DNA of 42,716 bases from a phage. Below are positions 5,557-22,663 of the stretch, piece after piece. The stretch lies in sequence record PZ386962.1, one strand, 5' to 3'. Below the pieces are notes generated by a model. The model had not been told where the DNA came from, did not search any database, and saw only the letters and a list, made by a program, of their open reading frames with translations. The position numbers and the translations under genes were made by a program. Within the stretch, counting starts at the first letter, position 1; each line of letters begins with the position of its first letter.

Positions 5557-5946
5557 ATGTACCGTATCTATGCAAGCGCATATCGTCAGGGCAACGCTGA
5601 GTCAGTCAATCTGGCGCTTCATTGCAAGGCACTGCGAACGGTGCAGGACATGTTCGGAGTGGTTCCGGTCACACTGACAGGCAAGTTCGACAATGCGTAT
5701 GAGTTAAGCATGGTCTTCCCTGTCGATGGAATCTACGAAATCCGACAGGCTGTTAAGCTGTTTTGTAAAGCCTTCGAACAGGACTGCATCATGGTAGTGA
5801 CCAAAGACGACGATGCAATCTTCATGGACTCACCGTATCCGGGTAAGCCTGCTGGCAAGCTGGTCAGCAAGACTAACGAGGAAATGGAAGCCGGGCAGCA
5901 TACCGCTTGGACTTACGATGGTGAGCAATTTTGGGTAGTGGAGTAA
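5557..5946 (+). CDS. hypothetical early protein
   Basis: 129-aa ORF, GGAGA RBS 6 nt upstream, first well-supported ORF downstream of the promoter cluster. Confidence 0.6.
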   Translation: MYRIYASAYRQGNAESVNLALHCKALRTVQDMFGVVPVTLTGKFDNAYELSMVFPVDGIYEIRQAVKLFCKAFEQDCIMVVTKDDDAIFMDSPYPGKPAGKLVSKTNEEMEAGQHTAWTYDGEQFWVVE

Positions 5947-12181: not shown

Positions 12182-12610
12182 GTGCTTGAGTGTATTGACC
12201 ACGGCCAGAAGGGTAATGCTAATGGCTACGGATATACCAGCCGCTATGTAGATGGCAAGCGGGTAGTGGTTGGGCTGCACCGCGCAGCTTACTGCGATGC
12301 GCATGGCCTGCCTTACTCTGCAATCAAGGGCAAGGTGGTCATGCACCGTTGTGATAACCCACGCTGTATCAACCCTGACCATCTGGTGTTGGGTACACAG
12401 GGAGACAACATGCAGGACATGATGGGCAAACGCCGACACCACAAGGGTGAGGCAACACCGCACGCCAAGCTGACGAGTGAGCAGGTCGTGCTTATCCGTA
12501 AGCTGTACGCTGAGGGCGGCGTAACCCAACGTGAACTTGCGTTGGAGTTCGGTGTATCCCAAACGAATATCAGTGCCATCGTAAGGGGAGAAACTTTCAG
12601 TGTTGGATAA
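12182..12610 (+). CDS. HNH homing endonuclease (HNH + C-terminal HTH)
   Basis: GTG start with AGGAG RBS; HRCDNPRCINPDHLVLGT HNH core; C-terminal helix-turn-helix-like tail; paralog of 18584-19009. Confidence 0.75.
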   Translation: MLECIDHGQKGNANGYGYTSRYVDGKRVVVGLHRAAYCDAHGLPYSAIKGKVVMHRCDNPRCINPDHLVLGTQGDNMQDMMGKRRHHKGEATPHAKLTSEQVVLIRKLYAEGGVTQRELALEFGVSQTNISAIVRGETFSVG

Positions 12611-14347: not shown

Positions 14348-14539
14348 ATGGAAGAACGCACGTATCGAGCGGCACCCTTAAACCAACGTGAGCAAGCAAC
14401 CATCCGGGCGCAGTACCGGAAGGGTGATGCGTTCCGTGGTGCCGAGGCGCTGGCCGAACGTTTCAATGTGCCGCCTGCTGATGTGGTGGCAGTGGTGAAC
14501 TTCACTTATCGCAAGGGGAAACAGAAGCATGATAAGTAA
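14348..14539 (+). CDS. hypothetical small basic protein
   Basis: 63 aa, GGAGTA RBS 7 nt upstream. Confidence 0.5.
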   Translation: MEERTYRAAPLNQREQATIRAQYRKGDAFRGAEALAERFNVPPADVVAVVNFTYRKGKQKHDK

Positions 14540-15212
14540 TGCAGAAGTCAAGCGCGTATGGGCAGAGGACATCTGCCGTCTGCTGCAATCACATGAGCTG
14601 AACTTTGTGGTTGCCGGGGGAGGGGCAAGGGATACAGCGCTGGGTGTTGAGCCGAAGGACTATGACATCGTGGTCTTTGGTTGGGGTGGGGATGTAAGCC
14701 GCGTGGTCGGCAGACTCGAATGGTTAGACACCAACCTCGAAGCGTACGCCAAGCAGCACAACCTGCCGTATGAGTACATGCCAAGCTACCACGATGCAGC
14801 CGAGGGCGGCGACTTCGGTTCCCGTCTGTACGGTGTGTTCAAGCTCGGCCCGGTTGACATCATCATCAGTAAGTGTGGCTGCTGGTCACAGGTGCTGAGC
14901 GAGTTCGACTTCAACCTGAACCAGTTCTACTTCCCGTCCAGTATCCCGCGATACTCCGGGCAGTACAGCCGTGACCCCGGTGAGTTCATGGCGTACCCGT
15001 ACGAGCCGAAGCTGACAGCCGAGGACGTGCAGTGGTATCCGGCGCTGGCCAGTCTGGTTGAAAGCTACGACGACCTGCTGACTCTCCGCGTCTGCCGACC
15101 GGATGCCAGCCTGAGTCGTGTGGCCTACATGCTGGAGAAGCACGAGACACACCGCGAGCGCATCGAAGCATACGTCAATCGTATGCCAGACCATTTGGGT
15201 GGCACAGCATAG
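14529..15212 (+). CDS. Pol-beta-superfamily nucleotidyltransferase-like protein
   Basis: GG-x11-DYD signature (VVAGGGARDTALGVEPKDYDIVVF) matching the hG[GS]x9-13Dh[DE]h NTase motif, later VDIII acidic motif; AAGGGGA RBS. Confidence 0.55.
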   Translation: MISNAEVKRVWAEDICRLLQSHELNFVVAGGGARDTALGVEPKDYDIVVFGWGGDVSRVVGRLEWLDTNLEAYAKQHNLPYEYMPSYHDAAEGGDFGSRLYGVFKLGPVDIIISKCGCWSQVLSEFDFNLNQFYFPSSIPRYSGQYSRDPGEFMAYPYEPKLTAEDVQWYPALASLVESYDDLLTLRVCRPDASLSRVAYMLEKHETHRERIEAYVNRMPDHLGGTA

Positions 15213-15222
15213 CGGGGGATGA

Positions 15223-17688
15223 ATGGCAATTAGAGCACAGGTAATCGACGTTGAGACTGAGAACCATGAGTGGTACGGGGAGCTGGCATCGCCGCGCTGC
15301 CCGGATAACTATGTGGTTATGCAGGGCCAGCGTGACTGTGTGCTGACCAAGGATGGCTGGGTATTCTACGAGCGCGAGGAGTATCGGTACAGTTCTCGTG
15401 AGGACTGGTTGCAGAACAAGAGTCTGCACCTGCATCCTGACACGAACATTCTGGTAGCTCACAACGCGCCGTATGAATTGAGCTGGTGGTTCGAGCATTA
15501 CGGTGACGAGTTCATTGCCTTCCTCAAACGAGGTGGCCGTGTATTCTGTACCGCGTATGCTGAGTACCTGCTGACGCATCAGCAATCCCAGTACCCATCC
15601 TTGAACGAGACAGCACCGAAGTATGGTGGTACTCACAAGGTGGATGCAGTCAAGGCAATGTGGGAGTCAGGCTATCTGACCAGCCAGATTGACCCTGAGC
15701 TGTTGAGCGAGTATCTGTCCGGGCCGTCCGGGGATATTGAGAACACGACCAAGCTGTTCGTTGGTCAGTGGGCTGAACTGACAAAGCAGGGCATGTTGCC
15801 GATGGCACTGACCCGCTTCGAAGGTATGCTCATGTGGGCGTACATGATGCACGCTGGTCTGCATGTTGACCGTGAGGTAGCCGAGCGCAACCGTCGCGAG
15901 TTACAGGATGCAATCAGTGGACTGACTGATACCCTACTGAGTTACCTGCCAGCCGACATGCCGAAGGAAGCGCGTGAGCAATTCAAGTTCACGTCAGCTT
16001 ATCACATGAGCGCCTTCGTGTTCGGTGGTGTGATGAAGTACAAGGCGCGAGTCGAGCGCCGGGATGCCGAGGGCAATCTCATTTACGTGAAGGTGGATGC
16101 ACCACTGTTCAAGCGAGGCAAGGACAAGTGGCTCAAGCATACCAGCGAGTGTGAGTGGGATGACGAGACTGGGTTGTGGTATGACCCGGTTGAGAAGGTA
16201 CACCAGACTATCTACACCAGCGGCAAGCACAAGGGCGAGCCGAAGTTTGAGAAGCTGGCTACCGACGAGGTGGATACCAAGTGGGGTGAGGTGCTGTTCC
16301 GTATGCCGGGGCTTCTGCGTGTGCAGGACAAACGAGCGAAGGAGATTGCAGACAACCTCGAATGGGAAGACCCGAAGAAGCCGGGCGAGTATCTCCGGCG
16401 CACAGGTGATTGGGTAGGTAAGCGTAGGCTGGCCGATGGTTCCCCGGTATTCAGTACGGCGGGTGAGGTGCTGGACATTCTGGCAGCTCGTAAGATTCCC
16501 GGCGTGGTGGAGATTGCTGACCGGGCCAAGGCACAGAAAGACCTCGGCACCTACTACCTCAGCGAGACGTTCGATGAAGAAGGTAACGTGACTGGCCAGT
16601 CGGGGATGATGCAGTTCATCCAGCCGGACAGTATCGTACACCACACCATCAACATGACCGCGACCGAGACGACGCGCTTATCTTCGGCGCGACCGAACAG
16701 CCAGAACTTGCCACGTAAAGGTACGAGTAAGGTTAAGCAGATGTTCACCTCCCGCTTTGGTGAAGGTGGCCGCATCGTTGAAGCTGACTACTCGGCACTG
16801 GAAGTGGTGGGGCTGGCCGGGTTCAGTAAGGATAAGAACCTGATTCGTGCATTGCTCGACGGTATCGACATGCACTGTATGCGTCTGTCAGCTCAGCTCA
16901 ACGAGCCATACGAGGACGTGCTTAAGAAGTGCAAGGATGAATCCCATCCCGACCATGCACGATACAGTCAGATGCGTACTGACATTAAGCCGAAGGCGTT
17001 CTCATATCAGTATGGTGCAACAGCGCGAGGTATTGCGTACTCGACTGGTTGCTCTGAGGAAGAAGCTCAAGCGTTCATCGACAACGAGAAGGGTCTGTTC
17101 CCGGAAGTTGAAGAATGGTTCGACTCGGTTATCTTCCCAGCCGTAGAGAAAAGTGGACAGAGCAATGTGTTCAAGGAGCAGGACGAGAACGGAAGATGGC
17201 AGGTGTATCGCCGTGGTCACTTCCGGTCGCCGGGTGGAACTTGTTATTCATTCCGTCAGTACGAGAAATGGAACAAGGCGGCGCGTGCTCACCTGATGGA
17301 ATACAAACCAACTCAGATGCGTAACTATCCCATTCAGGGTGAGACAGCATTTTGGGTACAGGGAATCGGTGGCTTGCTGTTCCGCTGGCTGCTATCGAAT
17401 GACTTCTTTGGTGGGCGTGTGGTTCCCATCAACCAAGTGCATGACGCATTCTATTTCGACATTGCACCTGACTGCCCTCACGAGTTCTTCGTTGGACTCA
17501 AGGCAATCATGGAGAGCATCCCGGAATACTATAACCACGTATGGCCAGAGTATAACCTGACAGTGCCGTTCCCGGCAGAGGTGGAAGCAGGGCCAAGCAT
17601 GTACGAGAAGCACCACGTAGAGACGACAGCCGATGAAGTGCTGGAGTTTAAGAGACAATTCCTGTTGAGTAAGGGTATCGCATTATGA
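15223..17688 (+). CDS. DNA polymerase, family A (T7 gp5-like) with 3'-5' exonuclease domain
   Basis: Exo I DxE (VIDVETE), motif A (EADYSALEV), motif B R-x3-K-x3-F-x2-YG (RTDIKPKAFSYQYG), motif C region (VHDAFYFD); 821 aa. Confidence 0.85.
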   Translation: MAIRAQVIDVETENHEWYGELASPRCPDNYVVMQGQRDCVLTKDGWVFYEREEYRYSSREDWLQNKSLHLHPDTNILVAHNAPYELSWWFEHYGDEFIAFLKRGGRVFCTAYAEYLLTHQQSQYPSLNETAPKYGGTHKVDAVKAMWESGYLTSQIDPELLSEYLSGPSGDIENTTKLFVGQWAELTKQGMLPMALTRFEGMLMWAYMMHAGLHVDREVAERNRRELQDAISGLTDTLLSYLPADMPKEAREQFKFTSAYHMSAFVFGGVMKYKARVERRDAEGNLIYVKVDAPLFKRGKDKWLKHTSECEWDDETGLWYDPVEKVHQTIYTSGKHKGEPKFEKLATDEVDTKWGEVLFRMPGLLRVQDKRAKEIADNLEWEDPKKPGEYLRRTGDWVGKRRLADGSPVFSTAGEVLDILAARKIPGVVEIADRAKAQKDLGTYYLSETFDEEGNVTGQSGMMQFIQPDSIVHHTINMTATETTRLSSARPNSQNLPRKGTSKVKQMFTSRFGEGGRIVEADYSALEVVGLAGFSKDKNLIRALLDGIDMHCMRLSAQLNEPYEDVLKKCKDESHPDHARYSQMRTDIKPKAFSYQYGATARGIAYSTGCSEEEAQAFIDNEKGLFPEVEEWFDSVIFPAVEKSGQSNVFKEQDENGRWQVYRRGHFRSPGGTCYSFRQYEKWNKAARAHLMEYKPTQMRNYPIQGETAFWVQGIGGLLFRWLLSNDFFGGRVVPINQVHDAFYFDIAPDCPHEFFVGLKAIMESIPEYYNHVWPEYNLTVPFPAEVEAGPSMYEKHHVETTADEVLEFKRQFLLSKGIAL

Positions 17689-18584
17689 CCGCATCTGTAT
17701 TGAACCGCATGAACTCCATCGTCGAACAGTATGTTGACGAGGAAGAACTTGACTTTAACGAAGCCACGTCTGGTGGTGGTAAGCTGCTGCCGGAAGGTAA
17801 GGCACTGGCACGTCTGGTTGGCTACATTGAAGTGGGGCCGAGCGTAACCAAGCAGGCACCGGACAAGCCGCCTGTCAATAAGTTCTTCCTCCAGTTCGCG
17901 CTGTGGGGCAAGGCCAAGAACGGCGAGACTTACCACGAAGTTGTCAATGGTAAGATGGTGCCGGGCAAGGTGCGCACGCAGTTCATCGCTGTGAAGAAAG
18001 ACCTCAACAGCAAGTCCGGCGCATACAAACTGTTTAAGCGTATGAACCCGGACAAGACTGCGAAGCACTTCGCGCAGCTTCTGAACCACACCTTCATCGT
18101 TCCGATTATCCACAACGAATCGGGCGAGGGCGAGAACAAGAAGGTGTACGCCAACATCGACCTTGAGAACATCATGCTCGCGGTTGACCCGGTGACTGAC
18201 CAGCCGTACCCGGTGCCGGAGGTTGAGGACGAGACGCTGTTCAAGCTGTTCCTGTGGAACCGTCCGACCAAGGAAGACTGGGAATCCCTGTACATCGAAG
18301 GTAAGAACGACGATGGCAAATCCAAGAACTGGATTCAGGATAAGCTGCTGGAATCTCCAGAGTTCCCCGGCTCTCCGCTTGACCTGCTGCTGAATGGTGC
18401 AGGTGCTGGCTCGGCAATCGCTGAGCTGCCGGAGCTGGGCGACGTAAGCCAGCCGGAGGAAGTGGCTGAGGTTAAGCAGGAAGTGCAGGAGCTGGCGACG
18501 GCTGGTGCGGCTGACAAGTCGGCAGCGTCTAAGCCTGAGCCGGACGTAACTGGTGACGCTGACTTCGGGCTGCCGAGTCTGTAA
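17685..18584 (+). CDS. hypothetical DNA-metabolism-associated protein with acidic C-terminus
   Basis: 299-aa ORF overlapping DNA polymerase stop; acidic C-terminal tail; function not assignable. Confidence 0.5.
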   Translation: MTASVLNRMNSIVEQYVDEEELDFNEATSGGGKLLPEGKALARLVGYIEVGPSVTKQAPDKPPVNKFFLQFALWGKAKNGETYHEVVNGKMVPGKVRTQFIAVKKDLNSKSGAYKLFKRMNPDKTAKHFAQLLNHTFIVPIIHNESGEGENKKVYANIDLENIMLAVDPVTDQPYPVPEVEDETLFKLFLWNRPTKEDWESLYIEGKNDDGKSKNWIQDKLLESPEFPGSPLDLLLNGAGAGSAIAELPELGDVSQPEEVAEVKQEVQELATAGAADKSAASKPEPDVTGDADFGLPSL

Positions 18585-19009
18585 TGGATTGCATAGACCA
18601 CGGTAAACGCGGCAACCACTTTGGCTACGCCACCACCACGAGGACGGTAGGTGGCAAGCGCCGGGCTGGTATCAAGCTGCATCGTCTGGTCTACTGTGAA
18701 GCGCATGGCCTGTCTCTCCTTGACATTGAGGGGCAGGTCGTGCGCCATACCTGCGACAACCCGCGCTGCATTAACCCCGACCACATGGTACTCGGTACTC
18801 ACCAAGACAATGTGGCCGACCGGGTAGCGCGTGGCCGTGGGGCAGTAGGCGTGAGGAATGGCAGAGCCGTACTGTGTCCCGCCGTAGTGGACGCAATCCG
18901 TAGCCGCTATGCGAATGGCGGCATCAAGCAATCTGAGCTGGCTGAGATTTATGGCGTGAGTCAAACGCAGGTCAGCCGCATAGTGAGGGGAGAGTCATGG
19001 GAAAGTTAG
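18584..19009 (+). CDS. HNH homing endonuclease (paralog of 12182-12610)
   Basis: HTCDNPRCINPDHMVLGT core; clearly co-linear with the other HNH protein over its full length. Confidence 0.75.
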   Translation: MDCIDHGKRGNHFGYATTTRTVGGKRRAGIKLHRLVYCEAHGLSLLDIEGQVVRHTCDNPRCINPDHMVLGTHQDNVADRVARGRGAVGVRNGRAVLCPAVVDAIRSRYANGGIKQSELAEIYGVSQTQVSRIVRGESWES

Positions 19010-19971: not shown

Positions 19972-20278
19972 CGAGCCGATGGTAGACCTCAAGCTCATGG
20001 TGGTTGACCATGACCATGTGAGCGGGGAGATTCGCGGTGTCATCTGTCGCTGGTGTAATGCTCAGCTCGGTAAGGTAGAGAACTCTGCGAACCGGGCGAA
20101 GCGCCAGCGTACAGTTGACGACTGGTTGGACAGTGCCATTGAGTGGCGACGTAAGCAACACACTGGTCTGATGTACCCAACGCACAAGACCGAGGCAGAG
20201 AAGAAAGCGGCGATGGCCGACAGACGTAAGAAGGCGGCAGCCGCGAAAGCGCGAGCCTTAATCACTAAGGGGAAATGA
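19946..20278 (+). CDS. endonuclease VII-like Holliday junction resolvase
   Basis: Zinc-binding HNH-like core CPCPLCNEPMVDLKLMVVDHDHVSGEIRGVICRWCN typical of endonuclease VII family; start uncertain (19886, 19931 or 19946). Confidence 0.6.
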   Translation: MGCPCPLCNEPMVDLKLMVVDHDHVSGEIRGVICRWCNAQLGKVENSANRAKRQRTVDDWLDSAIEWRRKQHTGLMYPTHKTEAEKKAAMADRRKKAAAAKARALITKGK

Positions 20279-21402
20279 TGACCAAGTTAACTAATCACCA
20301 ACTCAAAGAAGACATTGCCGAAGGGCTTGGCACCAAGGCCATTGCTGAAAAGCACGACATGACCGAGAGCGCCATTCGATACCGGAAGCGCCAGCTTGCC
20401 AAGAGCGGCTGGAGTCCTGAGCACGACATGACGAAGGAGGTGCCGGAGCCGTACGCGGTGAAGGGTACGTCCACGCTGTACGATAAGGACGGCAACGTTG
20501 TCATGCAGTGGGTGAAGACAGCACTCGACCGTGAGCAGGAGCTGGCGCTGCTGCAAGAAGCTGTCGATGCGATTAGCGAGAGCATCACCCCGGAAGCTGC
20601 CCGACCGTACGCCGGGGGCGCGGCACCTGCCGAGCTGCTGAACCTGTTCGTGCTGACTGACTACCACCTCGGTATGCTGGCATGGGCAGAGGAAACTGGT
20701 GACGACTGGGATATGAAGATTGCGGAAGACCTGCTGGTCAAGTGGTTCTCGGCAGCGATTGCCAGTGCGCCGCCAGCACAGGTTGCCATCTTCGGCCAGC
20801 TCGGTGACTTCCTACACTGGGATGGGCTGGATGCAGTGACACCTTCGAGTGGGCATGTGCTGGATGCAGACACGCGATTCCAGAAGCTGGTGCGTGTGGC
20901 TATCCGGGCGCAGCGCCGCATCATTGGTATGCTGCTGGAGAAGTTCCCGCAGGTTCACGTAGTGTGTGCCGAGGGCAACCACGACATGGCCAGCTCCATC
21001 TGGATGCGTGAGCTGCTGCATGTCCTGTACGCTGACGAGCCGCGTGTCACCGTTGACCGCAGCCCCGACCCGTACTACTGCTATGAGCATGGCGAGACGG
21101 CACTGTTCTTCCACCATGGTCACAAGCGTAAGGCAGAACAACTGGAGACTATACTGGTCGCCAAGTTCCGCGAAGTGTATGGCCGAACCAAACATGCGTA
21201 TGCGCACGTTGGCCACCTGCATCACAAGAAGGTACTGGAGTCTGGTGTCATGGTCGTTGAGCAGCACCGTACGCTGGCAGCGAAGGATGCCTATGCCTCT
21301 CGTGGTGGTTGGCTGAGTGAGCGCAGCGCGAGCGTGATTACTTATCATGCCCGGTACGGTGAGGTCGCACGATTCACGATTAGCCCGGAGATGTTAGAGT
21401 GA
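20275..21402 (+). CDS. calcineurin-like metallophosphoesterase with N-terminal HTH
   Basis: Phosphoesterase motifs GDFLHWDG, EGNHDM, HHGH, GHLHH; N-terminal helix-turn-helix-like segment; AAGGGGA RBS. Confidence 0.6.
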   Translation: MMTKLTNHQLKEDIAEGLGTKAIAEKHDMTESAIRYRKRQLAKSGWSPEHDMTKEVPEPYAVKGTSTLYDKDGNVVMQWVKTALDREQELALLQEAVDAISESITPEAARPYAGGAAPAELLNLFVLTDYHLGMLAWAEETGDDWDMKIAEDLLVKWFSAAIASAPPAQVAIFGQLGDFLHWDGLDAVTPSSGHVLDADTRFQKLVRVAIRAQRRIIGMLLEKFPQVHVVCAEGNHDMASSIWMRELLHVLYADEPRVTVDRSPDPYYCYEHGETALFFHHGHKRKAEQLETILVAKFREVYGRTKHAYAHVGHLHHKKVLESGVMVVEQHRTLAAKDAYASRGGWLSERSASVITYHARYGEVARFTISPEMLE

Positions 21403-21617
21403 CGAGAACACTGTACCAAGAAGATGTGGTGCAGCTCAAAGAGGATGGCCTTTCCATTGAGTGGGAGGCCAACACTCAGGTCGAGCTGTATAAGGATGGC
21501 ACCGTCTGCATATCGCAGGATGGTGAGGAAGTCTGGTTGCCTTGGGCATATGTCCGGGATATTATTTTCGCTCTTGAGGAAGCACACGATGCACATGAAA
21601 GATACCGTAGTCGTTGA
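21399..21617 (+). CDS. hypothetical small acidic protein
   Basis: 72 aa, GTG start with GGAGA RBS. Confidence 0.45.
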   Translation: MTRTLYQEDVVQLKEDGLSIEWEANTQVELYKDGTVCISQDGEEVWLPWAYVRDIIFALEEAHDAHERYRSR

Positions 21618-22092
21618 TTTGGACGGCACGCTGGCTGATGGCCGCTGGCGTTTGCACCTGCTGCCTCCACCGGAGCGTCGGCACCTTGACGAAGCGTGGG
21701 CCGAGTTCAACTTGGCTGGCGCTGACGACCCTGCGTTTCAGGATACGATTGACATTGTGAACGCTCTGGCCCTCACGTATCGCATTGTCATCCTGACTGG
21801 ACGCGGGGCCGTGGCCCGTGAAGTAACAGAGCAGTGGCTCGACGAAGCTGGCGTTGTTTACGACAAGCTAATCATGAGAGAGATTGGTGACTGCCGTAAG
21901 GACACAGAGATGAAGCTATCCGCTCTGGAGGATATTGGTATCGAGAACATCGTGTGTGCTTTCGATGACCTGCCGCACATCGTGGACTTCATGCGAAGCC
22001 TCGGCATCACAGTGTATGAAGTGACCCGGTACGAGGACAACCATGAATACGTCCACGCCAATGCCAAATATGATGGAGACAAAGATGAGTAA
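21589..22092 (+). CDS. HAD-superfamily phosphatase (polynucleotide 3'-phosphatase-like)
   Basis: DxDGT motif right after start (MHMKDTVVVDLDGTLADGRW), later ILTGR and CAFDD motifs; GAGGA RBS 8 nt upstream of ATG at 21589. Confidence 0.6.
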   Translation: MHMKDTVVVDLDGTLADGRWRLHLLPPPERRHLDEAWAEFNLAGADDPAFQDTIDIVNALALTYRIVILTGRGAVAREVTEQWLDEAGVVYDKLIMREIGDCRKDTEMKLSALEDIGIENIVCAFDDLPHIVDFMRSLGITVYEVTRYEDNHEYVHANAKYDGDKDE

Positions 22093-22663
22093 GAAGGGTA
22101 AGCAGTTTATCTTAGACCCGTCCCGTAACTGGGGTACTGGTACGCTACTGAGTGACATCGCAGAGCAGGGTATCATCCTGACGTACGACGAGCCGTACGA
22201 TGTACCGAACGACAGCCGTGACTACTACTCCTGCGTAAAGGACGGCAAGACTCACCTGCTTGTGCTGGAGCCGTACGAGGTGCTGGAGGTGGAGAAGTCG
22301 TTCATCCCGATTGACCCGTATGACCCGGCCAGTGATGTTGAGGTCGCAGTGGTTAAGGCTGCTGGGCCGGGCGGTATGAAGTTCGACGGTGACAAGCCTC
22401 GCATGGCTCTGCTGTTTGACGGCTGCCCGAATGCGCTGGAGGCTGTGGCCAGTGTGCTAACCTTCGGTGCTCAGAAGTACGCAGCTCACTCGTGGCAGAC
22501 TGTGCCGGAAGGTGAGGAACGTTACAAGTCAGCACTGCTTCGGCACCTGACCGCAGTGGGTAAGGGTGAGGAGACTGACCCGGAATCCAATCTGCACCAT
22601 CTGGCGCACGCTGCTTGCAATGCGCTGTTCATTCTGGAACTTGCTTTAAGGAAAACGAAATGA
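22085..22663 (+). CDS. conserved hypothetical protein (KFDGDKPR motif)
   Basis: 193 aa from ATG with GGAGA RBS; function not assignable from sequence. Confidence 0.5.
   Translation: MSKKGKQFILDPSRNWGTGTLLSDIAEQGIILTYDEPYDVPNDSRDYYSCVKDGKTHLLVLEPYEVLEVEKSFIPIDPYDPASDVEVAVVKAAGPGGMKFDGDKPRMALLFDGCPNALEAVASVLTFGAQKYAAHSWQTVPEGEERYKSALLRHLTAVGKGEETDPESNLHHLAHAACNALFILELALRKTK

Follow-up and report, generated by a model that had tools for sequence, protein, structure and literature searches.

Small nucleotidyltransferases (NTases) of the family PHROG 1614 have been described in phages as putative tRNA/CCA-nucleotidyltransferases, in a tree rooted on ORF22 of phage LIMEzero, and were recorded in 37 of 46 Autographiviridae of Pectobacterium as against 60 of about 500 others (Evseev et al., 2020). 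This report deals with one such enzyme, a protein of 227 amino acids (aa) encoded in sequence record PZ386962.1, a stretch of 42,716 nucleotides (nt) referred to below as the window, which at 42.7 kb represents essentially the whole genome of a T7-like podophage. Searches of the literature turned up no biochemical work on a member of PHROG 1614. The homologue gp22 of phage Emajogi (same gene position as the Ghunavirus NTase, just upstream of the primase/helicase gene gp23) was cytotoxic in Pseudomonas putida at the highest induction only, and the authors of that work remark that some gp22 homologues are annotated as Gad2 family.

Gad2 is the second anti-defence protein against Gabija found in Bacillus phage SPbetaL7, has a length of 400 aa and, according to an AlphaFold prediction, is a nucleotidyltransferase (bioRxiv). 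The SPbetaL7 protein is necessary for Gabija resistance and toxic when expressed in B. subtilis, and a homologue from a Brevibacillus prophage is alone sufficient to block Gabija (bioRxiv); genetic demonstration of Gabija inhibition is confined to these two proteins. The gene treated here, its family and both competing labels are already present in databases and papers, and the database labels are in conflict ('hypothetical', 'nucleotidyltransferase', 'tRNA nucleotidyltransferase', 'poly A polymerase', 'Gad2 family'). The reading proposed here, to which a probability of about 0.4 is assigned for the whole statement, is that the window protein is an active accessory counter-defence enzyme of the class II type, the class that comprises CCA-adding enzymes as well as poly(A) polymerases.

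The gene, its active site and its predicted fold

The closest relatives of the window over the test region are the Escherichia phages altidsur, aldrigsur and mellemsur (98% identity), and the taxonomy on record for a related phage, LF82-23, is Autographivirales; Autoscriptoviridae; Bonnellvirus. All plausible genes of the window lie on the + strand (Table 1). The NTase start codon is preceded by the purine-rich AAGGGGAAACAGAAG and overlaps by 11 nt the end of a 63-aa open reading frame (ORF), an arrangement that suggests translational coupling; with this overlap upstream and a gap of 10 nt to the DNA polymerase gene downstream, the gene sits in a tightly packed operon. Its product is identical, by exact-sequence match, to the public 'hypothetical protein' aldrigsur_22 / altidsur_32 (QHR65299.1, QHR65441.1, QHR68496.1). 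PHROG 1614 'nucleotidyltransferase' is matched over residues 6–224 (E 1.6e-42, 147 bits), and the ratio of nonsynonymous to synonymous substitution rates (dN/dS) against the LF82-23 orthologue is 0.14, which indicates purifying selection and thus a real protein. On this sequence evidence the ORF is confirmed as genuine, with a motif signature far beyond chance.

Conservation was examined in an alignment of 107 PHROG 1614 relatives with identities down to about 25%. Residues G30, G31, R34, D35, D44, D46 and R197 are invariant in all 107, at least 90% conservation is found for G39, P42, D110, F126, D127, N129 and N131, and 47 columns are invariant across the close homologues, counted as 19 or as 29. 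The window protein reads, in order, G31-G32, 11 residues, D44-Y45-D46 and later V109-D110-I111, the family-invariant glycines being G30 and G31 by alignment. Motif A (GGGARD...PKDYD) follows the class II pattern of GGxVRD then DxD and aligns to solved CCA-adding and poly(A) polymerase enzymes, and D44 and D46 are assigned as its metal-binding aspartates by the sequence signature. The putative third carboxylate, D110, is kept in 105 of the 107 members and lies on strand E109–114 of the structural model. A stretch that aligns to 'RRDFTINS' of Escherichia coli PcnB (F126 in 101 members, D127 in 106, N129 in 98, N131 in 103, Q132 in 90) retains the Asp and Asn of the motif B consensus RRDxxxNA as D127 and N131, while both arginines are absent (S124-E125-F126) and the final Ala is replaced by Gln. 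From the EDxxR of motif D only the Arg is kept (R197), and the Asp position is occupied by S, T or P in the family and by S194 here (S/T194 in 60 members, K204 in 72). The helix that carries R197 is predicted with high confidence (H195–207); S194..R197 were placed by hhalign on D..R of the PcnB sequence 'EDPVR', and the helix also aligns to 'SALRxQKY' of Gad2.

The AlphaFold2 model built on the 107-sequence alignment has a mean predicted local distance difference test score (pLDDT) of 89.7 and a predicted template modelling score (pTM) of 0.87, compared with a pLDDT of 79.1 for an earlier model from a shallow alignment. It displays the features of the Pol-beta superfamily, namely the alpha/beta NTase fold, the G-[GS] turn, the DxD pair and the third carboxylate on a neighbouring strand. 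Against the PDB, the family profile matches CCA-adding enzymes (E 6e-10) and poly(A) polymerase I (E 8e-9), and hhalign relates the family to E. coli PcnB with 94.5% probability (E 7.5e-8, 153 columns, reaching the motif-D helix) and to E. coli Cca with 89% (E 2e-6). The search is informative only with the family profile, as the single sequence gave noise plus one 22-residue motif-A match. In structural comparisons 136–147 residues superpose on class II enzymes of about 400 aa, and terminal uridylyltransferases, CD-NTases, MenT1 and alarmone synthetases score at most 8.3, with a similar ranking for the first model. Domain profiles detect motif A at a low level: in NCBIfam the pcnB and cca models matched at motif A alone and below threshold, and Pfam PolyA_pol (PF01743) scored 14.6 bits, short of the cut-off of 23, with a match confined to residues 28–51. 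Of the 107 relatives, 49 match it at E <= 0.01 (best 5.4e-7). Taken together, the alignments and the model identify the predicted protein as the head of a class II enzyme plus one motif-D-like helix.

An earlier note on this DNA had described a 227-aa ORF at 14529–15212 with the signature GG-x11-DYD followed by a hydrophobic-Asp-hydrophobic motif. The ORF, running from ATG to TAG, is borne out by its PHROG match and its dN/dS value, the signature is present, and the two observations that could have gone against the proposal, on residue conservation in homologues and on the fold of a structural model, turned out in its favour. The note also took the protein for a minimal NTase with no obvious partner domain. 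The superfamily was correctly recognised and there is indeed no fused partner domain, but the enzyme is not generic: it falls on the class II side, well away from cGAS/DncV, MNT and aminoglycoside NTases.

This placement does not make it a canonical member of the class. The body and tail domains of the 370–470-aa (approximate size) class II enzymes are absent and the neck almost so, the window NTase ending at residue 227, and the protein is strongly acidic (isoelectric point (pI) 4.9, net charge -12). Since a tRNA-anchoring body and tail are missing and the acidity is strong, the protein is not a canonical CCA-adding enzyme or general poly(A) polymerase; the sub-threshold PolyA_pol score and the residues missing from motifs B and D point the same way. 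Maturation of phage-encoded tRNAs was also considered and is ruled out, as no tRNA genes were found in the window.

Distribution, synteny and relationship to Gad2

A profile search run exhaustively over 1.84 billion representative proteins recovered the family in 399 clusters at 50% identity, nearly all of 150–230 aa and matched mainly over residues 10–135. By tblastn, 212 of about 50,700 phage genomes carry it; most of these belong to podophages of Pseudomonas, Vibrio, Klebsiella and Escherichia, and in many the annotation is already 'nucleotidyltransferase'. Acidity is a property of the whole family (median pI 4.86, 99% of members below 7), close to that of Gad2 (about 5.0) and far from that of PcnB (9.7); such acidity is unexpected for a free-standing RNA- or DNA-binding enzyme. 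The window NTase has no match in PADLOC or among toxin families.

Genomic context was taken from annotated phage records and from contigs encoding relatives. Bonnellvirus, LIMEzero and metagenomic podophages whose NTases are only 32–38% identical to that of the window share the order helicase, small ORFs, NTase and family A DNA polymerase. In a Drulisvirus-type Klebsiella phage the NTase directly follows the polymerase gene, in Ghunavirus its neighbours are the lysozyme gene on one side and the primase/helicase gene on the other, and in Pectobacterium Studiervirinae a gene-map legend names it right after a gp4.5-like inhibitor of toxin-antitoxin systems (Evseev et al., 2020). It is, in addition, the fast-evolving gene of its module, with 88.5% identity to the LF82-23 protein as compared with 96–99.7% for polymerase, helicase, exonuclease and the 299-aa protein, and with 40% identity to LIMEzero ORF22 where neighbouring genes retain 59–82%. 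A distribution that is patchy and correlated with the host, a mobile gene position, fast divergence and toxicity typically mark genes with an accessory role in host interaction and not core replication genes.

The connection to Gad2 was raised by precomputed Pfam annotations, in which PF26128 'Gad2' is on record for relatives at 32–70% identity to the window NTase (P0017, P0018, P0020, P0021 and P0023 at 62–70%; P0025–27 and P0029 at 35–41%; and P0033, a 220-aa protein for which the genomic-context look-up gives the match at the E <= 1e-5 level). For comparison, 120 Gad2 homologues were retrieved with the verified Brevibacillus sequence from the bioRxiv supplement and 28 of them were aligned; nearly all have 372–474 aa, all 120 carry PF26128, and invariant residues extend to position 358. 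The small-NTase profile matches every one of the 120 at about 20–30 bits, collinearly with Gad2 residues 18–163 and including motif A, the FDF motif and the S-x-x-R-x-x-K helix, and hhalign relates the two families with a probability of 74% (E 2.8e-5). In the reverse direction a Gad2 profile, built from close full-length proteins, matches small NTases weakly (at most 19 bits), and single-sequence BLASTP against Gad2 was not significant. Homology to the N-terminal NTase domain of verified Gad2 is thus weak but consistent, and the label 'Gad2 family' is defensible at the level of the superfamily, while 'a Gad2' is not established.

Proposed function and its alternatives

A possible anti-defence role, mentioned as one alternative in the earlier note, gains support from the Gad2 assignment of relatives and is the basis of the reading preferred here. 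The enzyme would be produced together with the middle (DNA-metabolism) genes and would act in accessory counter-defence or host takeover. In its active site D44, D46 and D110 are expected to hold two Mg2+ ions, and a nucleoside triphosphate (NTP) would be bound by GGxxRD, R99, K105 and R197. As to the donor nucleotide, the acceptor and the targeted defence system, we infer a template-free transfer of a nucleoside monophosphate onto an acceptor hydroxyl, most likely the 3'-OH of a polynucleotide and less likely a protein side chain, and, by analogy with Gad2 genetics, a Gabija-type nuclease defence acting on replicating linear phage DNA as the likeliest target. Gabija is the best candidate since no relative other than Gad2 has a phenotype, and the current model, in which Gabija acts on phage DNA ends once RecBCD is inhibited, fits linear T7-like genomes.

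A number of points weigh against this counter-defence reading. Experiments on PHROG 1614 members amount to overexpression toxicity only, and the mechanism of Gad2 itself was still listed as unknown in 2026. The window NTase has no Pfam match on record, and the Pfam copy that was scanned, one without PF26128, left true Gad2 proteins unmatched as well. The small-NTase profile that finds Gad2 (20–30 bits) finds class II RNA enzymes at least as well, with 38 bits for PcnB, and gives Cca 21 bits. The active sites differ, with GGxxRD, D110 and DxNxN in the small NTases where Gad2 has GGxITS, Q88/H91 and FDFTVCMG, and the C-terminal half of Gad2 (roughly 220 aa), where recognition of Gabija could reside, has no counterpart in the window protein. 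Finally, a role in replication could equally explain why the position beside the DNA polymerase gene is conserved. A more specific proposal sees in the small acidic PHROG 1614 enzymes a free-standing version of the catalytic core of Gad2, able to inactivate by enzymatic means those defences (Gabija, perhaps also others) that respond to DNA ends or to replication; it is regarded as unlikely. Under it, nucleotides would cap the 3' ends of phage DNA, or a defence nuclease or helicase would be nucleotidylylated; if true, it would provide the first mechanism for Gad2-type inhibition and imply a widespread anti-Gabija function in T7-like phages of enterobacteria, Pseudomonas and Vibrio.

The most probable alternative to this counter-defence reading is repair of tRNA 3' ends, in which a minimal CCA-, CC- or A-adding enzyme would restore acceptor ends that are trimmed or blocked in the course of infection or through a defence aimed at tRNA. 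Enzymes that add CCA, A or poly(A) provide both the nearest solved structures and the best profile matches, conservation covers motif A together with the Asp and Asn in motif B and the motif D Arg, nearly half of the aligned members match PolyA_pol at E <= 0.01, and the label 'tRNA/CCA-nucleotidyltransferase' is already in use (Evseev et al., 2020). Against this stand the absence of a body and tail for the tRNA elbow in a protein of which only the head superposes, the substitution of the Asp of the EDxxR templating pair and the loss of the motif B arginines, the negative charge, a PolyA_pol score below its cut-off, a phage without tRNA genes and a host, E. coli, with a Cca of its own; the function is considered unlikely on balance. 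The same kinship with PcnB would allow tailing of host or phage transcripts, marked in this way for 3'-exonucleolytic decay so as to aid host shut-off and nucleotide recycling, but PcnB is basic and equipped with an RNA-binding body and C-terminal regions that this acidic family does not have, and a patchy distribution agrees poorly with a general takeover function, which makes tailing very improbable. A further candidate is growth arrest of the MenT kind, by addition of nucleotides to host tRNA acceptor ends or modification of another essential host molecule. Against it, the structural match to MenT1 is clearly weaker than that to class II enzymes, toxicity of Emajogi gp22 required the highest induction, toxin-family and PADLOC searches were negative, and the phage itself needs host translation. 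It is given the lowest credence of all.

Genomic position supports two further interpretations. Recurrence of the order helicase, small ORFs, NTase and DNA polymerase at only 32–40% NTase identity, the location directly after the polymerase gene in Drulisvirus, the 10-nt gap to the polymerase gene in the window and the presence nearby of a dATP/dGTP pyrophosphohydrolase-like gene would suit a DNA enzyme that partners the adjacent polymerase, either adding to 3' ends of the linear genome or its intermediates or modifying nucleotides or DNA; the BASEL authors have likewise speculated on DNA modification for an NTase among the replication genes of another podophage group. Most Autographiviridae, T7 included, lack the gene, which is therefore dispensable for such replication, the NTase evolves much faster than core replication genes, and in Ghunavirus it precedes the primase/helicase gene instead of flanking the polymerase gene. 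To our knowledge, moreover, all characterised class II enzymes (PF01743) use NTPs on RNA substrates, and a replication function is regarded as distinctly improbable. The earlier note had grouped the NTase with a HAD phosphatase (21589–22092) and a metallophosphoesterase (20275–21402) as a toolkit that would rebuild ends cut by host nucleases, for example anticodon nucleases. Its calls of these two neighbours were mostly right: the phosphatase is a PNKP-type 3'-phosphatase domain, and the other protein belongs to a 'DNA repair exonuclease' family but has no Pfam match. The three genes occur in one module in Bonnellvirus and LIMEzero, where both partners accompany the NTase, and in an unrelated phage contig a family member lies 1.4 kb from a full kinase-phosphatase polynucleotide kinase (PNK). 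As a functional unit the toolkit is not supported: both partners are undetectable at the Ghunavirus locus and at some metagenomic podophage loci, the HAD phosphatase is missing from the Drulisvirus locus as well, and 5–6 kb of replication and recombination genes separate the members. For the HAD phosphatase there are 1286 phage records, in the main from siphoviruses that infect Klebsiella and Escherichia, a taxon spread unlike that of the 212 NTase records, mostly podoviruses of Pseudomonas, Vibrio and Klebsiella. A Pfam scan of the HAD protein detected no 5'-kinase domain, and the 31 kb examined of the LF82-23 genome carry no RNA ligase annotation, so that of a T4-type healing and sealing set (5'-kinase, 3'-phosphatase and ligase co-inherited with the NTase) only the phosphatase is represented. 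The three genes are not a conserved unit; cooperation within the Bonnellvirus lineage is possible, whereas end rebuilding as the function of the NTase is judged very unlikely.

Neighbouring genes and comparison with known systems

Features of the window that bear on the NTase and its surroundings are listed in Table 1. The early-region S-adenosylmethionine lyase (SAMase) belongs to a known anti-restriction gene type, and the phage thus carries at least one recognised counter-defence gene. Of two paralogous homing-endonuclease genes, with 53% mutual identity, one separates the primase gene from the helicase gene and the other the 299-aa gene from the 5'-3' exonuclease gene; both insertions are absent from these sites in aldrigsur and altidsur, whose NTase is 100% identical, which indicates that they are recent mobile insertions. 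The 299-aa protein is kept in the Drulisvirus-type Klebsiella phage (33% identity), where a pharokka-style annotation calls it 'DNA polymerase'. In this phage, Klebsiella phage phi1_146033 (9001–10900), a 'metallo-phosphoesterase' lies two genes downstream of the NTase in an independent neighbourhood, and by tblastn it is unrelated to the 375-aa exonuclease of the window. Related phages label the HAD protein 'polynucleotide kinase', which overstates the encoded content. The 206-aa protein downstream diverges faster (80–86% identity) than its neighbours; its N-terminal portion of about 100 residues has no annotated match, and the protein could affect deoxynucleoside triphosphate pools or hint at nucleotide modification.

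Table 1. Positions in the window of the NTase gene, its motifs and other genes discussed in the text.
Feature	Position	Strand	Evidence or remark
SAMase, early region	5557-5946	+	PF23780, E 1.4e-27
HNH_3 plus helix-turn-helix homing endonuclease	12182-12610	+	
63-aa ORF, function unassigned	14348..14539	+	PHROG 31596; upstream context
NTase ORF, 227 aa plus stop	14529..15212	+	ORF list; ATG to TAG
Motif A, G30-D46, GGGARDTALGVEPKDYD	14616..14666	+	Class II signature GGxxRD...PKDxD
V109-D110-I111, beta-strand with putative third catalytic carboxylate	14853..14861	+	Alignment and model
Motif B-like F126-D127-F128-N129-L130-N131-Q132	14904..14924	+	Counterpart of class II RRDFTINA
Motif-D-like helix R190-K204, RPDASLSRVAYMLEK	15096..15140	+	Contains invariant R197
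Family A DNA polymerase	15223..17688	+	Context; ATG 10 nt past NTase stop
299-aa protein	17685-18584	+	PHROG 862, E 1e-76; no Pfam match; overlaps DNA polymerase gene end
HNH_3 plus helix-turn-helix homing endonuclease	18584-19009	+	
375-aa 'DNA repair exonuclease'	20275..21402	+	PHROG 704, E 2e-146
Stand-alone PNKP-type HAD 3'-phosphatase domain	21589..22092	+	Pfam PF25109, E 4e-15; PHROG 415
206-aa protein	22043-22663	+	C-terminal half PF18909 'dATP/dGTP diphosphohydrolase, N-terminal', E 1e-32; PHROG 801 'dATP/dGTP pyrophosphohydrolase'

The family is common in podophages of the therapeutic type that infect Klebsiella, Pseudomonas, Vibrio, Pectobacterium and E. coli. The window protein may justifiably be labelled an NTase of the class II head type whose active site is intact, but neither a CCA-adding enzyme nor a bona fide Gad2. 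Should the link to Gad2 be functional, this enzyme of 227 aa would offer a tractable model for an NTase that neutralises Gabija and, as a determinant of host range, would merit monitoring in candidate phages for therapy; otherwise it would be an ordinary accessory enzyme.

Compared with known systems, the window NTase agrees most closely with the other PHROG 1614 members (for instance LIMEzero ORF22, Pectobacterium phage PP47 gp28 and Q19 gp24, Pseudomonas phage WRT gp21 and Emajogi gp22) in motifs, small size, acidity and placement among Autographivirales replication genes. The Bonnellvirus clade is set apart by a longer C-terminal region (136–227), which is found in full only in close relatives, while most members match only residues 10–135 plus the R197 helix. 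Relative to class II enzymes it has about half the size, no body or tail and almost no neck, has neither the two arginines of motif B nor the acidic pair of motif D, and is acidic instead of basic. An orphan 'CCA-adding enzyme head domain' protein is known from Streptococcus pneumoniae (NP_344798.1, PDB 2la3), but it is bacterial and not phage-encoded, and no sequence-level relationship between it and the NTase was detected. MenT1 (Rv0078A) and related small NTase toxins are likewise small stand-alone enzymes of the Pol-beta fold, and MenT1 appears among the structural neighbours; its structural score is lower than that of class II enzymes, no match is seen at the sequence level, and the window gene, in a lytic phage context and with no adjacent antitoxin-like gene, is unlike the MenT toxin-antitoxin loci. 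Gad2 and PHROG 1614 proteins have in common that they are phage-borne, acidic (pI about 4.9–5.0) and, in some members, toxic, and in our reading of the alignments PHROG 1614 probably represents a distinct clade located between the class II RNA nucleotidyltransferases and Gad2.

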